Sequence record: MZ189261.1
DNA from: Escherichia phage S143_2
DNA: 64,000 nt
Direction: 5' to 3' (one strand)
The translations under genes and the position numbers were made by a program. Under the pieces are notes generated by a model. That model was not told where the DNA came from, did no database searches, and was given only the letters and a program-made list of their open reading frames with translations. This document shows positions 2,266 through 60,791 of the stretch, in pieces; within the stretch, counting starts at the first letter, position 1; each line of letters begins with the position of its first letter.

Positions 2266-2753
2266 CTCAAATTCCTGCATTCGGTAATAAAACGTTCAAC
2301 TTCATTATTCTTGGCCTTTATCTTGTCTTTATGTTCTTGTAAACTACTTTTAATAAGATTAATAATGATGGCGGTGGTGCCGCCGCCAATGATGCCACCA
2401 ACAACACTTATGATAATAGATGCTAATAAGATAGCAATAATATCAACAAAACCTAAAGAACTCACCTTAGTACTGAAAAACCATATAGACGGTACAAATA
2501 TAATCCATCCTGTTATCCATTGGCACTTATTGAAAAACTTTTCAAGCTCAGCTTGAGTTGTTTGTATTACTTCATCGATAGGTTGATATCCATTAATGTA
2601 TCTGTTCACGATAATACCTGCTGGCTGGTCGATTTTAAATTCTTGGCAAATACGTTTCACTAAGTAGGATGGACAGGATGTCCAATCTACTGAATAGTAT
2701 GAAATACCTTCATTGCCATCGTCTATATTAGACCAATATGTTTTGTTAATCAT
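2262..2753 (-). CDS. small membrane protein (163 aa), two predicted TM helices, unknown function
   Basis: Hydrophobic stretches WITGWIIFVPSIWFF and FVDIIAILLASIIISVVGGIIGGG; C-terminal ERFITECR motif. Confidence 0.6.
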   Translation of the reverse strand: MINKTYWSNIDDGNEGISYYSVDWTSCPSYLVKRICQEFKIDQPAGIIVNRYINGYQPIDEVIQTTQAELEKFFNKCQWITGWIIFVPSIWFFSTKVSSLGFVDIIAILLASIIISVVGGIIGGGTTAIIINLIKSSLQEHKDKIKAKNNEVERFITECRNLR

Positions 2754-3439
2754 TACCAGCCTTCCATAGGGAATTCCAGATAAACTTGAGCATTGACACG
2801 AATTTCATTGGTAATCTTTTTAACTCGGTCTGTATTACGAGATACACGTCCGAACCAACGCCATCCATTACTAATTGCACGAGAACCAGTGTGCCATGTT
2901 TGCCAATCAAACTGAAGAAGAGTACGATCTGGAGCTTCCCATTTCTCTAGTTCACCTTTTTCAATTTTTTCGAGGACTTCTTTGTGCCACTGGCGATAGA
3001 TAAGTTCGCCATCAGGAATCTGACTGAACTCTGCAGTTCCTGTTGCAAAATGAGTAGGACACACATCAGCGTTAACAAGACCAAGAATATGTTCAGACAA
3101 ATAGCGAGGATTGTCATAATCAGGTTGTCCTGCAGTAATAAAGTGTTGACCGACTGGAATATCTGGGCGAGGAACATCATCATGGTGATATCCAGGAATA
3201 GCAGGATACCAACCGGGCATCAGCATGTGAACTCGTGAATCAAATACTACATCCGAGTCTTTCCAATCGTCAGGAAGATTTTGGATAAAGCTACGAGTAA
3301 TCGGGCCACCATTATCAAAAGCAAAATTCAAATCGCAGTTAAAGAACATAGGCTCGTTTTTAATCTGGTCGTTTTTAATCGCATGAGCAAAACCACCTAC
3401 TGCACGAGCTTGGCTATTAAACACTTTAGAACTATTCAT
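2753..3439 (-). CDS. hypothetical protein (228 aa), His/Asp-rich motif
   Basis: Long ORF with SD GAGGAAAA; motif GYHHDD...HF; no family recognised. Confidence 0.6.
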   Translation of the reverse strand: MNSSKVFNSQARAVGGFAHAIKNDQIKNEPMFFNCDLNFAFDNGGPITRSFIQNLPDDWKDSDVVFDSRVHMLMPGWYPAIPGYHHDDVPRPDIPVGQHFITAGQPDYDNPRYLSEHILGLVNADVCPTHFATGTAEFSQIPDGELIYRQWHKEVLEKIEKGELEKWEAPDRTLLQFDWQTWHTGSRAISNGWRWFGRVSRNTDRVKKITNEIRVNAQVYLEFPMEGW

Positions 3440-3440
3440 A

Positions 3441-3746
3441 TTATTTTCCTCGACATTCTTTAATGAAATTTTCTAGATTGGTAGATTCAATAGCTTTTTT
3501 ACGAGCTTCTGCGTGTTCTTCTTCAGACAATTTACATTTATAATTGACCCAGACATTATGGTCGAAACTAGTCGTGGCATATAATAACAATGCTCCAACG
3601 AATAGCAAAAACGGTGATAAGAATACGAAACCAGGAACACCATCCATATCGTAGGCCTTTTGTAATACTGCAACAGAAAGAGCTGCGTAAAAAGGTGATG
3701 CAAATATTGTTAAAAGACCGATTCGGTTGGTTTCTGTTAATTTCAT
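3441..3746 (-). CDS. small membrane protein (101 aa)
   Basis: Two hydrophobic helices; C-terminus ...LENFIKECRGK; SD GAGGAGAA; downstream of early-promoter cassette. Confidence 0.6.
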   Translation of the reverse strand: MKLTETNRIGLLTIFASPFYAALSVAVLQKAYDMDGVPGFVFLSPFLLFVGALLLYATTSFDHNVWVNYKCKLSEEEHAEARKKAIESTNLENFIKECRGK

Positions 3747-3764
3747 AATATTCTCCTCATGTTT

Positions 3765-3806
3765 TAATAGGACTACTATATCATAGTCCTATAATTGTGT
3801 AAACAG
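3765..3806 (-). promoter_or_regulatory. early-promoter-like cassette with embedded stem-loop (copy 1)
   Basis: Minus strand GTTTAC (-35) then inverted repeat ATAGGACTA/TAGTCCTAT over the -10 region; near-identical copies at 5059-5101 and 12714-12756. Confidence 0.6.
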
Positions 3807-3816
3807 TTTTGTGAAG

Positions 3817-4773
3817 TTATTTGAAAGGTTTTACCATATGGAAATTTTGTTTGAAACGTTTGACGTAATCATCATGTCCTAAGCTTTGGTACATACTTAC
3901 TACTTTGCTGTAGTTTTCCCAGGCATACTCACGGAACCAACCAGAGGTGATGCTTGTACAGACTTTTTCCAATGCCATCATAAAACTGGCTTCAGGGTTA
4001 ATTTTAAAGTCATTAGGAATTTGAGAACGTTCTAATGCTAGTACACATGATTCTTCGTATACACCGGCCAATTTGACCATTTCTGGTAACGATTCAAACT
4101 TCTCGCGTGAGGTCATGACTTCAGAACCGTCTTTCATATAAAATGTATACGCTGGACGGTCTGTTAGTGCAATGGCTTCATGAATAGTATCATGGTCATA
4201 CGTATAGATGTCATCTTTAAAGAACGCACTTTTAGAAGTGTCAAGAACTGGGTGAGCATAGTTCAAGGTTTCTTTCTGGCGTTTCAGCATAATTTCAGTA
4301 AGTTCATCGTTCAGTGTAACACCTTTACCACGAAGATACTGAATATGGTTCATAGTCTTTAAAAAGAATGGATTATTTTTCTTGAAACGATGAGACAACT
4401 TAATTGCAAGACATATCTCAGGAGTTGCCCAGTAAAACCCGTTCAAACGGTCTTTAGTCAAATTTTTCTTGGCGTATTTTAAAAGGTCATAAGAAGACGT
4501 GAAATCTTCAGGAGTGAGTTCACCTACTAATTCACGGACATTAGTGATTGCCGGAACAATATATGCTTCAAAATGAGTTTCGCGTCCATTATGGAAGCAT
4601 TTGAAAACTTGGACATCAGGGTTATCTTGATGAACATATACACCCATCATTTGATTTTTGAATGCATTCCAAGAACCTTGGTCTGCAATAAAGTCCCAGT
4701 CACTATTTTTGATAGCGTTAGAATCAATAAGACCATGATAGTGAAGTGCACGAGAACCAATAACTAACATCAT
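3817..4773 (-). CDS. hypothetical protein (318 aa), possible nucleotidyltransferase-fold N-terminus
   Basis: Strong SD GAGGAAAA; N-terminal LVIGSRA...SDWDFIA loosely fits the G[GS]...DxD NTase pattern; no family recognised. Confidence 0.6.
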   Translation of the reverse strand: MMLVIGSRALHYHGLIDSNAIKNSDWDFIADQGSWNAFKNQMMGVYVHQDNPDVQVFKCFHNGRETHFEAYIVPAITNVRELVGELTPEDFTSSYDLLKYAKKNLTKDRLNGFYWATPEICLAIKLSHRFKKNNPFFLKTMNHIQYLRGKGVTLNDELTEIMLKRQKETLNYAHPVLDTSKSAFFKDDIYTYDHDTIHEAIALTDRPAYTFYMKDGSEVMTSREKFESLPEMVKLAGVYEESCVLALERSQIPNDFKINPEASFMMALEKVCTSITSGWFREYAWENYSKVVSMYQSLGHDDYVKRFKQNFHMVKPFK

Positions 4774-4801
4774 AATATTTTCCTCGGATTAATTCATTAA
4801 C

Positions 4802-5053
4802 TTAAATTTCACGACATGCGATATCATATTCATCCCAGAGGTCATCGTGTGAAGCCTCTACCAATGGAACGATTGTACCATTTATGTCTTCATTATAAGG
4901 GCAAATTGTACAGTGCGCATCTTCGAATCGGATACCTTTGTGTTCAGATTTTTTATAACGCATATCGAATATCTTTGCAAATTTTTCACGAGTAATGGTT
5001 TTACCAACCACTTTGGTTCCGATACTTTCGTAATAAATCATTGTGGACTCCAT
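4802..5053 (-). CDS. hypothetical protein (79-83 aa)
   Basis: ORF downstream of early-promoter cassette; alternative start at 5041. Confidence 0.5.
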   Translation of the reverse strand: MESTMIYYESIGTKVVGKTITREKFAKIFDMRYKKSEHKGIRFEDAHCTICPYNEDINGTIVPLVEASHDDLWDEYDIACREI

Positions 5054-5058
5054 TTAAT

Positions 5059-5101
5059 TTGATAGGACTACTATAACATAGCCCTATCTTGTTGTAAACT
5101 G
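5059..5101 (-). promoter_or_regulatory. early-promoter-like cassette with stem-loop (copy 2)
   Basis: gataggactactataacatagccctat...gtaaac, about 85-90% identical to copies at 3765 and 12714. Confidence 0.6.
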
Positions 5102-5103
5102 TT

Positions 5104-5301
5104 TTAGCAAGAATAACTAGACGATACCCAGCCTTGAACAGTGATACTATTGTGGGATAATGAGATCGCGTCCTGGAGATTCAGACCTGCGTTATCTTCA
5201 ATCCATAACGTAACTTCTTCGCGTTCTTCTGTTGCAATTTGGAACAGGTTTTCCAGAGCAGCTACTGCCGTACGTACAGCACAATCTAATTCACGAGACA
5301 T
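5104..5301 (-). CDS. small protein, paralog family member (65 aa)
   Basis: C-terminus ...QGWVSSSYSC shared with the next two ORFs. Confidence 0.5.
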   Translation of the reverse strand: MSRELDCAVRTAVAALENLFQIATEEREEVTLWIEDNAGLNLQDAISLSHNSITVQGWVSSSYSC

Positions 5302-5310
5302 ATGGTTTCC

Positions 5311-5583
5311 TTAGCAAGTGTGAGAAGATGCGATCCAACCACCAGTTTCGAGGCTTAGGTTGTAGTCGTATTGGTAAACGTCGGCCCATTCAGCATAGCC
5401 GTTTTTTGTACAACGTTCAAGGTCGGCTTTAAGCTGTCCGGGTGAATGATATGTTCCACCCATACCATAAGCTGGATACAAGTCGAATGTTGTGTTTTGT
5501 TTATCAGCAATTTCTTTGGCAGCCTCAATAGCTGCATAGATTTTTGCTACAGCTTCAGCCAATTCGGTTTGTTCTTTAGACAT
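5311..5583 (-). CDS. small protein, paralog family member (90 aa)
   Basis: C-terminus ...GGWIASSHTC; stop overlaps TAAGGAA SD of next gene. Confidence 0.55.
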   Translation of the reverse strand: MSKEQTELAEAVAKIYAAIEAAKEIADKQNTTFDLYPAYGMGGTYHSPGQLKADLERCTKNGYAEWADVYQYDYNLSLETGGWIASSHTC

Positions 5584-5592
5584 AGTGATTCC

Positions 5593-5898
5593 TTAGCACA
5601 ACGCAGAAGACGAAACCCAAGCACCTTCAGTAATAACGTAACCGTTACCTTCACGCTTAACATCGCCACCATTATTTTCAATTTCATCTTTCATCCACTG
5701 GGATACGATTTCACCCTTAGGATAATAAGTACGACCGCTACCATAATCACCTACAGAAAATGATACGGCATATTGGTCTGCGATCTTTGTTGCTTCTTCT
5801 TCGATACGTTCAGCTTGATTCAGAAGTTTATAAATTGCGTCTGAAGCGGATTTGGCATCATTAAACTCTGGTACTTTAATTTCAATAATCTTACTCAT
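5593..5898 (-). CDS. small protein, paralog family member (101 aa)
   Basis: C-terminus ...GAWVSSSALC; ATGA overlap with upstream gene. Confidence 0.55.
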   Translation of the reverse strand: MSKIIEIKVPEFNDAKSASDAIYKLLNQAERIEEEATKIADQYAVSFSVGDYGSGRTYYPKGEIVSQWMKDEIENNGGDVKREGNGYVITEGAWVSSSALC

Positions 5899-6254
5899 TT
5901 TCTACATTCCTTAATAAAGTTTTCGATTGTTTCATTTTCACGTCTAGCTAGGAGTTCATTATAACTAATCATTTGAGAAGCGTAAACCTTTTTATTTTTC
6001 TTGTTATGGTTTATAAAGTCGTAGTAAAAATAGACTACAGTACAAAAGGATGCGATGGATGCAAAGGCTTGGGTATACCGTAAGTCCTGCCATTGGTCTG
6101 TGAATCCACCAGTGTTCCCTATAAATCCTAACACAACGCCGTCAATAAGAAATCCAACTAATCCAAAGGCAAATCCCATGCCAATACTCATAATAAAAAT
6201 TAGAATGTTCTCACCAAGAGAAGGCCATACGGTTAAGAGTTGAGGCTTTTGCAT
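5895..6254 (-). CDS. small polytopic membrane protein (119 aa)
   Basis: Multiple hydrophobic helices; C-terminus ...IENFIKECRK. Confidence 0.6.
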   Translation of the reverse strand: MQKPQLLTVWPSLGENILIFIMSIGMGFAFGLVGFLIDGVVLGFIGNTGGFTDQWQDLRYTQAFASIASFCTVVYFYYDFINHNKKNKKVYASQMISYNELLARRENETIENFIKECRK

Positions 6255-6628
6255 CTTATTTCCTTAACGAATTCCATAGCTTCTTCATATTCATACTTTT
6301 TAACAGCTTCATCATACTGAGCTTGGGCTTTTGCGCACTGAACTTTCCATTCTCTTAATCGGGCTCTGTGATGACGGCCTTGGTGCCAATATCCTGCCCA
6401 ATTAATAGGCATTAATAAAAACGGTACAATAAGTGGTGCGACGAACATTAATGAAAACGCTGCATCAGACGATATAACTTTATTGGAATCTAAAACAGCT
6501 CCTATAATCATAAAGATTAAAAACGCTAAAGCTAAAATAGGGCCAAATAGTACTTCATTTGGGATTAATTTACGCTTGTATTCATACGCCCAGGGCTTAC
6601 TTGGCATGTATAGGGTTGGCTTTGACAT
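6233..6628 (-). CDS. small membrane protein (about 131 aa)
   Basis: Start trimmed to ATG 6628 (track start was TTG); TM segments LFGPILALAFLIFMIIGAVL and AFSLMFVAPLIVPFLL; C-terminal EFVKEIRCK. Confidence 0.55.
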   Translation of the reverse strand: MSKPTLYMPSKPWAYEYKRKLIPNEVLFGPILALAFLIFMIIGAVLDSNKVISSDAAFSLMFVAPLIVPFLLMPINWAGYWHQGRHHRARLREWKVQCAKAQAQYDEAVKKYEYEEAMEFVKEIRCKSLNS

Positions 6629-7193
6629 ATTCTCTACATTCCATAATAAATTGCTCAAGGATTAAATTGTTAGTGAAATTAGGACTAACAACCATGGTTT
6701 CATAAAGCGCATCAATAGCACTTAAAGCATCAACTCTTTTAAGCAAAGGCTTGCCTTCATACATAGTTTCAGAATCGACGATTAAAGTGAAGTAGTATTT
6801 TTTATTATTGACCAGAACTTCTGTATCAATATAAAACATGTTAGACCTTAAAAGCTTGTCTCTAAAGCCTATGTAATCATCTGAACGTTCACTGATATAG
6901 TCCCATTCAGTGTTTAAACAACAAACAGACCACGTAGGAGCAACGAAATCAGTGAATCTAATATCATGGTCTGCAACTAGTTTAGCAATAGCTCCGATAT
7001 CATGAATCATAATACCTGGGGCTAATAAAGATTTTCGGTTATTTGCATATTCAGTTGTCTCATAAGAAGACGACCAGTACCATTTACGTCCAGTTGCAAC
7101 ATATCGTAATGAATCAACTAAAGACGTAGGTGGATTTACCTTATCTCGGAACTCTTCGAACATTGAGTCAATATCATTATTTTGGTTTCGCAT
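6597..7193 (-). CDS. hypothetical protein (about 198 aa)
   Basis: Start trimmed to ATG 7193 with AAGGAG SD; contains EQFIMECR near C-terminus. Confidence 0.55.
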   Translation of the reverse strand: MRNQNNDIDSMFEEFRDKVNPPTSLVDSLRYVATGRKWYWSSSYETTEYANNRKSLLAPGIMIHDIGAIAKLVADHDIRFTDFVAPTWSVCCLNTEWDYISERSDDYIGFRDKLLRSNMFYIDTEVLVNNKKYYFTLIVDSETMYEGKPLLKRVDALSAIDALYETMVVSPNFTNNLILEQFIMECREYVKANPIHAK

Positions 7194-10192: not shown

Positions 10193-10269
<77 letters not shown>

Positions 10270-10273
10270 TATT

Positions 10274-10348
10274 TGGCGGACGTGATAGGATTCGAACCTA
10301 TAACCAATCGCTTAACAGGCGATCGCTCTGCCATTGAGCTACACATCC
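10274..10348 (-). tRNA. tRNA-Asn (anticodon GUU), CCA encoded
   Basis: Acceptor GGATGTG/CACGTCC, anticodon stem ATCGC/GCGAT, loop CTGTTAA, T-arm ATAGG TTCGAAT CCTAT. Confidence 0.8.
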
Positions 10349-10352
10349 AAAT

Positions 10353-10439
10353 TGGTGGGGAGTGATGGAGTCGAACCACCCGAGTCGCAATGACAATGGA
10401 TTTACAGTCCACACCGCTACCTCTACGGGATAACTCCCC
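10353..10439 (-). tRNA. tRNA-Tyr (anticodon GUA), long variable arm, CCA encoded
   Basis: Acceptor GGGGAGT/ACTCCCC, anticodon loop CTGTAAA, T-loop TTCGACT. Confidence 0.75.
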
Positions 10440-10451
10440 TAATTCATAATT

Positions 10452-10526
10452 TGGTGGCCCTGGGTGGAATTGAACCACCATCTGGCGATTATGAGTCGCT
10501 TGCTTGAACCTTCCAGCTACAGGGCC
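10452..10526 (-). tRNA. tRNA with anticodon CAU (Ile lysidine-type by T4 synteny, or Met)
   Basis: Acceptor GGCCCTG/CAGGGCC, anticodon loop CTCATAA, T-arm GGTGG TTCAATT CCACC. Confidence 0.75.
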
Positions 10527-10527
10527 T

Positions 10528-10603
10528 TGGTGCTGATTGACGGAATCGAACCGCCGACCTTCTCATTACAAGTGAGTTGCTCTACCTACTGAGCTAAATC
10601 AGC
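10528..10603 (-). tRNA. tRNA-Thr (anticodon UGU), CCA encoded
   Basis: Acceptor GCTGATT/AATCAGC, D-arm GCTC AGTAGGTA GAGC, anticodon loop CTTGTAA. Confidence 0.8.
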
Positions 10604-10608
10604 AAAAC

Positions 10609-10698
10609 TGGCGGAGGCGATAGGATTTGAACCTATGAGTCGCCGGAGCGACTGCCGGTTTTCAAGACCGGTGCATTAAACCACTCTGCCACGCCTCC
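10609..10698 (-). tRNA. tRNA-Ser (anticodon UGA), long variable arm, CCA encoded
   Basis: Acceptor GGAGGCG/CGCCTCC, anticodon stem CCGGT/ACCGG, loop CTTGAAA. Confidence 0.8.
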
Positions 10699-10700
10699 AG

Positions 10701-10774
10701 TCTCCATACAAGGATTTGAACCTTGGGCCTCCTGATCCCAAATCAGGCGCTCTACCAAACTGAGCTACACGGAG
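10701..10774 (-). tRNA. tRNA-Pro (anticodon UGG), no encoded CCA
   Basis: Acceptor CTCCGTG/TATGGAG, anticodon stem CCTGA/TCAGG, loop TTTGGGA; 2-nt spacer to tRNA-Ser. Confidence 0.8.
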
Positions 10775-10784
10775 TAAATTAAAT

Positions 10785-10858
<74 letters not shown>

Positions 10859-10863
10859 AAATT

Positions 10864-10950
10864 TGGTGCGAGAAGTGGGACTCGAACCCACAAGGAAATC
10901 ATTCCGCAGCATTTTAAGTGCTGTGCCTTTACCAATTTGGCCATTCTCGC
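10864..10950 (-). tRNA. tRNA-Leu (anticodon UAA), long variable arm, CCA encoded
   Basis: Acceptor GCGAGAA/TTCTCGC, anticodon loop CTTAAAA, T-arm GTGGG TTCGAGT CCCAC. Confidence 0.8.
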
Positions 10951-10951
10951 G

Positions 10952-11024
10952 CTGGGAATAAAGGACTCGAACCTTTGCATCCTGGAATCAAAATCCAGTG
11001 CCTTACCAACTTGGCTAATTCCCA
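10952..11024 (-). tRNA. tRNA-Gln (anticodon UUG), no encoded CCA
   Basis: Acceptor TGGGAAT/ATTCCCA (U1:A72), anticodon stem CTGGA/TCCAG, loop TTTTGAT; 1-nt spacer to tRNA-Leu. Confidence 0.8.
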
Positions 11025-59829: not shown

Positions 59830-60791
59830 TGTACTCTTTAGAAGAATTTAATAATCAAGCTATAAATGCAGATTTCCAACGAAACAATATGTTTAGTTGT
59901 GTATTTGCTACTACACCATCAACCAAATCGTCTTCACTAATTTCGTCAATTGGTAGTTTTGCTTATAATAACTTAGGGTTGGATTCTGATTGGTTAGGAT
60001 TGACTCAAGGTGATATCAATCAGGGCGTAACAACCCTGATTACAGCAGGAACACAGAAATTAATTCGAAAATCAGGTGTAAGTAAATATCTGATTGGAGC
60101 AATGAGTCAACGTACGGTACAAAGCTTGTTAGGCGAGTTCACAGTAGGATCTTATCTGATAGACTTCTTCAATATGGCATATAATAATACAGGTTTAATG
60201 ATTTATTCTGTAAAAATGCCTGAGAACCGATTATCTTATGAAACAGATTTCAACCATAACTCCCCGAACATCCGAATTACCGGCCGTGAAATGGACCCGT
60301 TAGTAATAAGCTTTAGAATGGATTCCGAAGCATCTAACTTTAGAGCAATGCAAGACTGGGTAAACTCAGTCCAAGACCCTGTAACAGGTCTTCGTGCTTT
60401 ACCACAAGACGTCGAAGCAGATATTCAGGTTAATTTACATGCACGAAATGGTTTACCGCATACCGCTGTCATGTTCACCGGATGTATTCCTGTTAGTGTC
60501 TCTTCTCCTGAGTTAACGTATGATGGTGATAATCAGATAACAGTTTTTGATGTAACATTTGCTTATCGCGTTATGCAATCAGGTGCTGTAAATAGACAGG
60601 CTGCTTTAGAATGGCTGGAATCAGGACTTATTAGTAGTGTTTCAGGAATGTTTGGAAATAATCAGAATGATTCTGGTCTAGGAAGTGCGGTATCAAGACT
60701 TTCTAGATTAGGTGGGACTGCCGGAGGTGTGTCTAATATAAACACATTGACAGGTGTGGTGAATTCTGCGTCAAGAGTTTTAGGACTATAA
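59829..60791 (+). CDS. 54: gp54 baseplate tail-tube initiator
   Basis: 320 aa as T4 gp54. Confidence 0.9.
   Translation: MYSLEEFNNQAINADFQRNNMFSCVFATTPSTKSSSLISSIGSFAYNNLGLDSDWLGLTQGDINQGVTTLITAGTQKLIRKSGVSKYLIGAMSQRTVQSLLGEFTVGSYLIDFFNMAYNNTGLMIYSVKMPENRLSYETDFNHNSPNIRITGREMDPLVISFRMDSEASNFRAMQDWVNSVQDPVTGLRALPQDVEADIQVNLHARNGLPHTAVMFTGCIPVSVSSPELTYDGDNQITVFDVTFAYRVMQSGAVNRQAALEWLESGLISSVSGMFGNNQNDSGLGSAVSRLSRLGGTAGGVSNINTLTGVVNSASRVLGL

Follow-up and report, generated by a model that had tools for sequence, protein, structure and literature searches.

The 64-kb stretch of Escherichia phage S143_2 (MZ189261.1) considered here, hereafter the window, belongs to a phage of the T-even type, from the RB69 group (Mosigvirus). 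On its minus strand, at positions 3817-4773 (stop codon included), it carries an ATG-initiated open reading frame (ORF) of 318 amino acids (aa). The original prediction had placed the ORF at these coordinates and with this length, the strand being unstated, and had quoted its N-terminus, MMLVIGSRALHYHGLIDSNAIKNSDWDFIA, which matches the translated ORF exactly; it had further proposed, as a weak pattern match, that this N-terminus resembles the Pol-beta-type nucleotidyltransferases (NTases). Our analyses supported the NTase assignment by conservation, by an AlphaFold2 model and by Foldseek comparisons, and revealed that the gene is linked to genes for small acidic proteins in a directional, reciprocal, lineage-independent and near-obligate manner. 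Because of the conserved NTase triad and the predicted fold, this linkage, its occurrence in two parallel versions and one fusion, we infer that the enzyme and the small proteins physically work together.

A predicted nucleotidyltransferase of a phage-confined family

The 318-aa protein, from here on the enzyme, is 98.7% identical to gp121 of phage PhAPEC2, itself annotated as similar to RB69 ORF134c, and on sequence grounds it is the homologue of RB69 ORF134c. Profile hidden Markov model (HMM) searches, one of the checks proposed in the original prediction, matched the Pfam families DUF7277 (aa 2-101, E value 1.2e-27, 96.9 bits) and DUF7275 (aa 120-305, E value 1.3e-78, 263.7 bits), each with a gathering cut-off of 27, as well as PHROG 2141 (E value 8e-150). 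All three are annotated as being of unknown function, and no homologue of a different known function was retrieved. Apart from these DUFs, no named family for the enzyme was present in Pfam, NCBIfam, PADLOC or the PDB sequences, and the PADLOC models of defence systems returned 0 matching families. PsaB (E value 0.055) and HisJ/PHP (17.9 bits, the cut-off being 90) gave weak matches that we attribute to chance.

Enzymes of this family were found in 733 phage records and, in a library of 1.84 billion proteins, formed 1,596 clusters at 50% identity, nearly all with a length of about 300 aa. The genomes of 185,579 species returned just five matches, all located on phage-sized contigs of metagenome-assembled genomes; the family is confined to phages. 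It is widespread among phages of the therapeutic type that infect Escherichia, Klebsiella, Acinetobacter, Aeromonas, Pseudomonas, Vibrio and actinobacteria. Some GenBank records already label homologues as "putative nucleotidyltransferase", so the fold assignment in itself is not new, and no papers were found on DUF7275, DUF7277, ORF134c or phrog_2141.

The AlphaFold2 model of the enzyme was obtained with a predicted local distance difference test (pLDDT) score of 91.5 and a predicted TM-score of 0.86 and describes two lobes. The N-lobe (aa 1-105; 4459-4773, minus strand) is predicted to be a minimal Pol-beta-type NTase core, as indicated by invariant alignment columns, the modeled structure and its NTase structural neighbors. 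The hG[GS] motif, I5-G6-S7, follows a strand (residues 2-5) and precedes a helix (7-12), thus lying at the beta1/alpha1 junction; the metal-pair motif Dh[DE]h, D25-W-D27-F, starts the strand 26-31; and the third carboxylate, in the h[DE]h motif F68-E69-A70, falls within the strand 64-73. In the model, the placement of GS, DxD and E69 is the canonical Pol-beta NTase arrangement. The pattern G[GS]...DxD, on which the original prediction was founded, stands far above chance, the triad being kept throughout a highly diverse family. In a set of 100 unique homologues, no full-length protein is without G6, S7, D25 or D27, and the residue at position 69 is Glu in 88% and Asp in 6%, hence acidic in 94%.

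The model also resembled solved NTase structures. Foldseek returned high-probability matches to 5uvd and MenT1 only, and the top structural neighbors comprised MenT1, MenT3 and MenT4, together with ANT(2''), LnuA, JHP933 and TM1012. The predicted structure thus has the NTase fold, the absence of which would have spoken for abandoning the original assignment, and as modeled the enzyme is a member of the Pol-beta NTase superfamily at the fold level, with a predicted activity.

The C-lobe (aa 120-305, DUF7275; 3859-4416, minus strand) is helical and specific to the family, as defined by Pfam and conservation, and showed no convincing structural relative past the first helices, which are common with MenT-like enzymes. 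The most conserved residues of the whole protein are located in this lobe, where K125, H128, K139, F184, F185, H194, D195, H198, E240, E241, E248 and R249 are 99-100% conserved. Two forms of the enzyme exist. The window encodes the long form, whereas short forms of about 255 aa, from actinophages, Vibrio phages and others, have about 45 N-lobe residues fewer and keep GS, the invariant DxD and all C-lobe invariants, the residue equivalent to E69 being only guessed in them. The two forms are set apart by R129, R165, R281 and C272, among other positions, and these four residues are kept only in the form whose partner, described below, ends with a free -SS..C carboxylate.

Arrays of small acidic proteins beside the enzyme gene

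Upstream of the enzyme gene and on the same strand, the window encodes three small proteins, here called partners. Partner 1 (5593-5898, 101 aa) and partner 2 (5311-5583, 90 aa) belong to phrog_899 and end with the tails ...GAWVSSSALC-stop and ...GGWIASSHTC-stop, respectively; partner 2 is acidic, carries a YGMGGTY hairpin and was modeled by AlphaFold2 with a pLDDT of 90.5. Partner 3 (5104-5301, 65 aa, phrog_4882) has an N-terminal helix and the tail ...GWVSSSYSC-stop, is devoid of the YGMGGTY hairpin and has nearly no insert; it may be the minimal version of these proteins and could reveal their essential parts. The phrog_899 partners have no Pfam domain and no name anywhere. This first partner family shares an N-terminal helix, a YG.G..Y hairpin and, at the extreme C-terminus, the invariant sequence (G)GW-x-S-S-x-x-C-stop, and its members combine a conserved scaffold with a hypervariable insert.

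A comparison with five distant phages (Otagovirus, Phapecoctavirus, Myxococcus Mx1, a jumbo Mimasvirus and Lazarusvirus) showed that the window has only the enzyme and the small proteins homologous to those at 5311-5583 and 5593-5898 in common with them; three of these phages encode the small proteins immediately 5' of the enzyme gene. The neighbors ORF132c, ORF133c and ORF135c are not kept outside the T4-like phages. We then surveyed 89 loci over about 8 kb on each side of the enzyme gene, defining a strict partner as an ORF with both a match to the family HMM and the tail motif. The 640 kb sampled upstream contained 133 strict partners and the 645 kb sampled downstream contained 0; every one of the 133 is on the strand of the enzyme, 19-2020 nt away from its gene. 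With a relaxed definition of the tail, 1-5 partners were present in 79 of 85 evaluable loci, 214 ORFs being upstream and a single one downstream.

The linkage also holds in the reverse direction. IMG/VR was scanned for DNA encoding YGMGGTY, which yielded 41 loci with a true partner ORF, and in all 21 of those with at least 3.3 kb of downstream sequence an enzyme gene was found downstream on the same strand. The tail itself is specific: SS..C ends 152 of 8,783 unique six-frame ORFs, with the Trp present in 148 of the 152, and within the window the motif occurs in three ORFs only, namely the three partners.

Some variation of these elements was recorded. In one lineage (loci L050, L051, L053 and L078) no upstream partner is present, and an ORF of 139-142 aa with the tail motif lies about 5.3-5.8 kb downstream on the opposite strand. 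The shifted tails ...NWDSSTC and ...NWDGSSC directly abut the enzyme gene in L058 (7467-7985) and L082 (7509-7754), and the spacing of Trp, SS and terminal Cys is therefore not absolutely fixed. The sequence AYGMGGTY is also kept in unrelated repressors of the CI/LexA type (about 224-250 aa, with helix-turn-helix and S24-peptidase domains), just upstream of the protease domain (IMG/VR loci L104, L105, L110-L112, L126, L130, L139, L142 and others), where its presence may be coincidental or may reflect mimicry of the hairpin at the repressor cleavage site. T4 Tk.1 (62 aa; 60346-60534, corresponding to L098 10346-10534) gave a weak match to the partner HMM (E value 3e-4) and has no tail motif; the match probably reflects helix similarity only.

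The short-form enzymes are associated with a second partner family. None of their 36 loci has a gene of the first family beside the enzyme gene, while 35 of 35 evaluable loci contain, immediately downstream, 1-4 tandem copies of a different acidic family (100-190 aa, phrog_18295/8206), often with overlapping stop and start codons. An earlier view from three loci, that the short form has no partner, was thereby ruled out. Besides the initiator Met, the sole invariant residue of the second family is a Ser, within G-[YW]-x-x-S-[YWF]-[DG]-G. The two families are mutually exclusive across loci and similar in their acidity, with a median isoelectric point of 4.4 in both (9.0 for background six-frame ORFs) and a net charge of -8 in the first and -11 in the second. 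Homology between them was considered and found unsupported (hhalign probability 0.2%). Finally, a single ORF of 387 aa in locus L205 (5788-6951) fuses a short-form enzyme in frame to a domain of the second family; this locus is a metagenomic contig and the fusion could be a sequencing artefact.

A possible action of the enzyme on its partners and the alternatives

These data are consistent with a composite model, to which we assign a little less than an even chance, in which the enzyme nucleotidylylates the small acidic partners and these serve as host-takeover or counter-defence effectors. The 318-aa protein would be the catalytic part of a phage-specific two-part module, the second component being the upstream tandem array of small, very acidic proteins. 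The GS loop would hold the phosphates of a nucleoside triphosphate (NTP) and D25, D27 and E69 the divalent metals, while the C-lobe would complete the active-site cleft and bind the acceptor. The nucleoside monophosphate from the NTP, or a nucleotide-derived group, would then be moved to a partner hydroxyl, the most economical chemistry, for which the invariant serine is the prime candidate acceptor, and this modification would activate or regulate the partners early in infection. An effector role is suggested by inserts that vary, by the presence of several paralogues and by the context of early promoters. That the enzyme is catalytic, which donor and acceptor it uses and what the module does for the phage are what we infer.

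A related logic operates in the MNT-HEPN (type VII) toxin-antitoxin systems, where the minimal NTase MntA (poly)AMPylates HepT, a small protein encoded by the neighboring gene (PMC7641770). An NTase acting on an adjacent small protein is by analogy what we propose for the phage module. However, the phage partners have neither HEPN domain nor Rx4-6H RNase motif nor any Pfam match, the putative acceptor is a Ser instead of a Tyr, and the phage enzyme possesses an additional lobe of 200 aa and is found in a lytic phage setting.

Other NTase-type enzymes, CitX/MdcG and GlnD/GlnE, place a nucleotide or nucleotide-derived group on a Ser or Tyr of a small protein, which in the case of the holo-acyl carrier protein synthases CitX/MdcG is an acidic carrier protein. 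The likeness is mechanistic only: neither pair gave a sequence or structural match in any search, and the enzyme has no profile or fold match to CitX/MdcG.

Several observations weigh against nucleotidylylation of the partners. The Ser, Trp and Cys that are invariant in them could serve to maintain the structure or to dock, and the acceptor motif shared by the two families is an analogy only, because the families are not detectably homologous. All invariant residues of the C-lobe occur in both enzyme forms although the partners differ, so that this conserved site could bind a common cellular substrate and not the partner. Moreover, six long-form loci have no recognizable partner nearby, and the closest structural neighbors, the MenT toxins, act on tRNA and not on protein (PMC10435456).

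The proposal of partner nucleotidylylation can be taken further, as a tentative and rather unlikely extension, to a dedicated protein-serine nucleotidylylation system of phages, possibly one of protein-primed oligonucleotide synthesis, that charges diversifying arrays of effectors. One conserved NTase would charge the array, the site being an invariant serine close to the constant C-terminal tail, and the phage would use the resulting nucleotide-armed effectors or decoys at an early stage of infection to act on functions or defences of the host. Such a system would have arisen in two versions, one in which the long form has W..SS..C proteins encoded upstream and one in which the short form has GxYxSY proteins encoded downstream.

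The main rival, which we regard as unlikely, is a MenT-like NTase acting on the 3' ends of RNA or tRNA, with the acidic proteins as its inhibitors or regulators, either antitoxin-like or mimics of nucleic acids. Such an enzyme would extend or repair RNA ends, disabling host tRNAs or mending tRNAs damaged by defence systems, and the partners would restrain or time it. Its appeal stems from the position of MenT1, MenT3 and MenT4 as top structural neighbors. Like the phage enzyme, these proteins of the MenAT systems (AbiEii, DUF1814) are bi-lobed, with an N-terminal Pol-beta NTase core containing DxD and a helical C-lobe, and MenT1 is neutralized by MenA1, a protein of 68 aa encoded directly upstream (PMC10435456). 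The strong acidity of the phage partners, the C-lobe invariants common to both forms, tRNA clusters flanking the enzyme gene at 21 of the 36 short-form loci and in several long-form lineages, the window included, and RNA-repair genes (an RNA ligase; a polynucleotide kinase with a ligase) nearby in two phages also favor this explanation. The invariant K125 and K139 lie at a similar distance from DxD in the sequence as the C-terminal motifs III and IV of MenT1 (K137, D152), of which they may or may not be the counterparts. However, the enzyme and all 39 homologues examined were devoid of a match to Pfam AbiEii/DUF1814 (PF08843) even at E values up to 10; its C-lobe is about twice as large as that of MenT, with an invariant set of its own (KxSH, HDxxH, EE, ER); and it is a phage protein only. 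The phage partners, unlike MenA1, are acidic paralogues encoded in tandem that have an invariant Ser motif in common. An antitoxin would not be expected to come as an array of up to five diverged copies, each with a hypervariable insert, and the lone invariant Ser and the SS..C tail resemble reaction sites more than inhibitor surfaces. The proximity of tRNA genes, frequent but not universal, is confounded by shared synteny and is not decisive.

Three further explanations are less likely than both partner nucleotidylylation and the MenT-like enzyme. In one, which we judge quite improbable, the partners are adaptors whose scaffold and tail dock on the enzyme and whose inserts each recruit a different host protein or nucleic acid for nucleotidylylation. 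The constant scaffold with its variable insert, the several diverged paralogues for each enzyme and the L205 fusion, which is compatible with a stable complex, agree with this idea, and the long-form-specific R129, R165 and R281 could bind the free C-terminal carboxylate or an acidic surface; yet invariant nucleophiles (Ser, Ser, Cys) are unusual in a pure docking motif, and the 65-aa paralogue has nearly no insert. There is a slim chance that the enzyme is instead a small-molecule NTase of the ANT(2'')/LnuA type, modifying a metabolite, an antibiotic-like compound or an immune signal, with the small proteins as independent early genes. ANT(2''), LnuA, JHP933 and TM1012 are among its top structural neighbors and genes related to NAD and ADP-ribose lie near it in several phages, but a strict, directional and reciprocal linkage to partners, with two independent versions and a fusion, is hard to explain in these terms, and the NAD-related neighbors are not kept between lineages. 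ANT(2'')-Ia, LnuA, JHP933 and TM1012 are themselves bacterial enzymes that modify small molecules (antibiotics) or are uncharacterized, and they have neither a sequence relationship to the phage enzyme nor partner arrays. Least probable of all, and in our opinion very improbable, is a catalytically inert NTase-like scaffold whose sole role is to bind a nucleotide or the small proteins. The loss of about 45 residues of the N-lobe sheet in the short forms would suit a pseudoenzyme, whereas no form has lost GS, DxD or the acidic residue at the third position (with the guess made above for the short forms) and about a dozen polar C-lobe residues stay 99-100% invariant over some 1,600 clusters.

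The phage enzyme was also compared with RlaP (PF10127; T4 NrdC.11 is an example), the RNA-ligase-associated phage NTase of the Pol-beta superfamily, which is likewise encoded in early or accessory regions (PMC7824862). The enzyme differs from it in having no PF10127 match, an hhalign probability of 0.1% against NrdC.11 and no consistent linkage to RNA ligase genes. It is distinct from DUF1814/AbiEii, MNT-HEPN, RlaP and the antibiotic NTases.

Genome setting and significance of the module

The region around the enzyme gene holds homologues of denV, e, nudE and e.2-e.8 and ten tRNA genes. The original prediction had called the ORF the largest of the accessory block, and no larger one exists in the interval bounded by gene e (1284-1784) and by the tRNA cluster (10193-11024); its statement that T4 has no gene of such size between e and the tRNAs agrees with the T4 map, where e.2 and e.3 are adjacent. 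Compared with T4 (67652-68319, L095), positions of about 2753-5898 of the window are an insertion between e.2 and e.3, made of seven genes, ORF132c to ORF139c, which include the enzyme and its three partners. HMM and tblastn searches of the whole 169-kb T4 genome found no homologue of the enzyme, which has never been studied because T4 lacks the gene. T4 nrdC.3 (308 aa) and NrdC.11, which is RlaP and unrelated, had been considered as homologues and were rejected on these searches.

The strong Shine-Dalgarno sequence reported in the original prediction was read directly as GAGGAA at 4780-4785 (minus strand), 6 nt 5' of the ATG. The early-promoter cassette described there stood in part: a consensus scan, with 10 of 12 matches, located a putative sigma-70/T4-early-like promoter upstream, TTTACA-17-TATAGT with an upstream TG, at 5070-5098 (minus strand), but an ORF of 83 aa (4802-5053, minus strand) intervenes before the enzyme gene. 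This ORF, the RB69 ORF135c homologue (phrog_3723), is co-transcribed with the enzyme gene judging by position, and the putative promoter would head a unit of the two. It has no homologue in the distant loci and is not kept with the module outside T4-like phages. A second promoter-like site found by consensus scan, TTTACG-17-TATAAT, is located at 5958-5986 (minus strand), 5' of the three partner genes.

Other features of the region were recorded. The inserted block also contains a minus-strand ORF of 228 aa (2753-3439), the RB69 ORF132c homologue, with no Pfam domain (phrog_1843). A peptide F[IV]xE[CI]R ends five neighboring ORFs, similar to e.2, e.3, e.4 and e.5 plus ORF133c and mostly encoding membrane proteins, and occurs nowhere else in the window; its copies lie at 2262-2291, 3441-3467, 5895-5918, 6233-6271 and 6597-6650 on the minus strand. 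Its coding DNA is a repeat found at the gene junctions (TTTATTAAGGAATGTAGAAAATGA), which provides the next gene with its Shine-Dalgarno sequence and an overlapping stop/start. Copies of this repeat both flank the block inserted relative to T4 and sit inside it, and they may be recombination points for cassette shuffling. The ten tRNA genes (Arg, Asn, Tyr, Met, Thr, Ser, Pro, Gly, Leu and Gln, minus strand) form a cluster some 5.4 kb away from the enzyme gene, on its upstream side, which is devoid of a segB-like insertion of the T4 kind. Genes related to NAD or ADP-ribose recur a few kb from the enzyme in different phages (L003, L004, L005, L009 and, in the window, NudE at 1807-2280); they encode NudE, SIR2, macro domain and ADP-ribosyltransferase proteins and NARP1-like Adps/Namat, none of which is kept across lineages.

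No earlier description seems to exist of the partner arrays, of their tail motif, of the two parallel versions or of the fusion. Should the proposal hold, the module would represent a new kind of phage-encoded post-translational modification system, in which an enzyme and the array of proteins that are its substrates or effectors are inherited together. The partners have hypervariable inserts, which suggest an arms-race function, and their invariant Ser/Cys tail offers a precise and cheap experimental handle. Even with a MenT-like enzyme or with adaptor partners, the module would constitute a new phage mechanism of host takeover or counter-defence.
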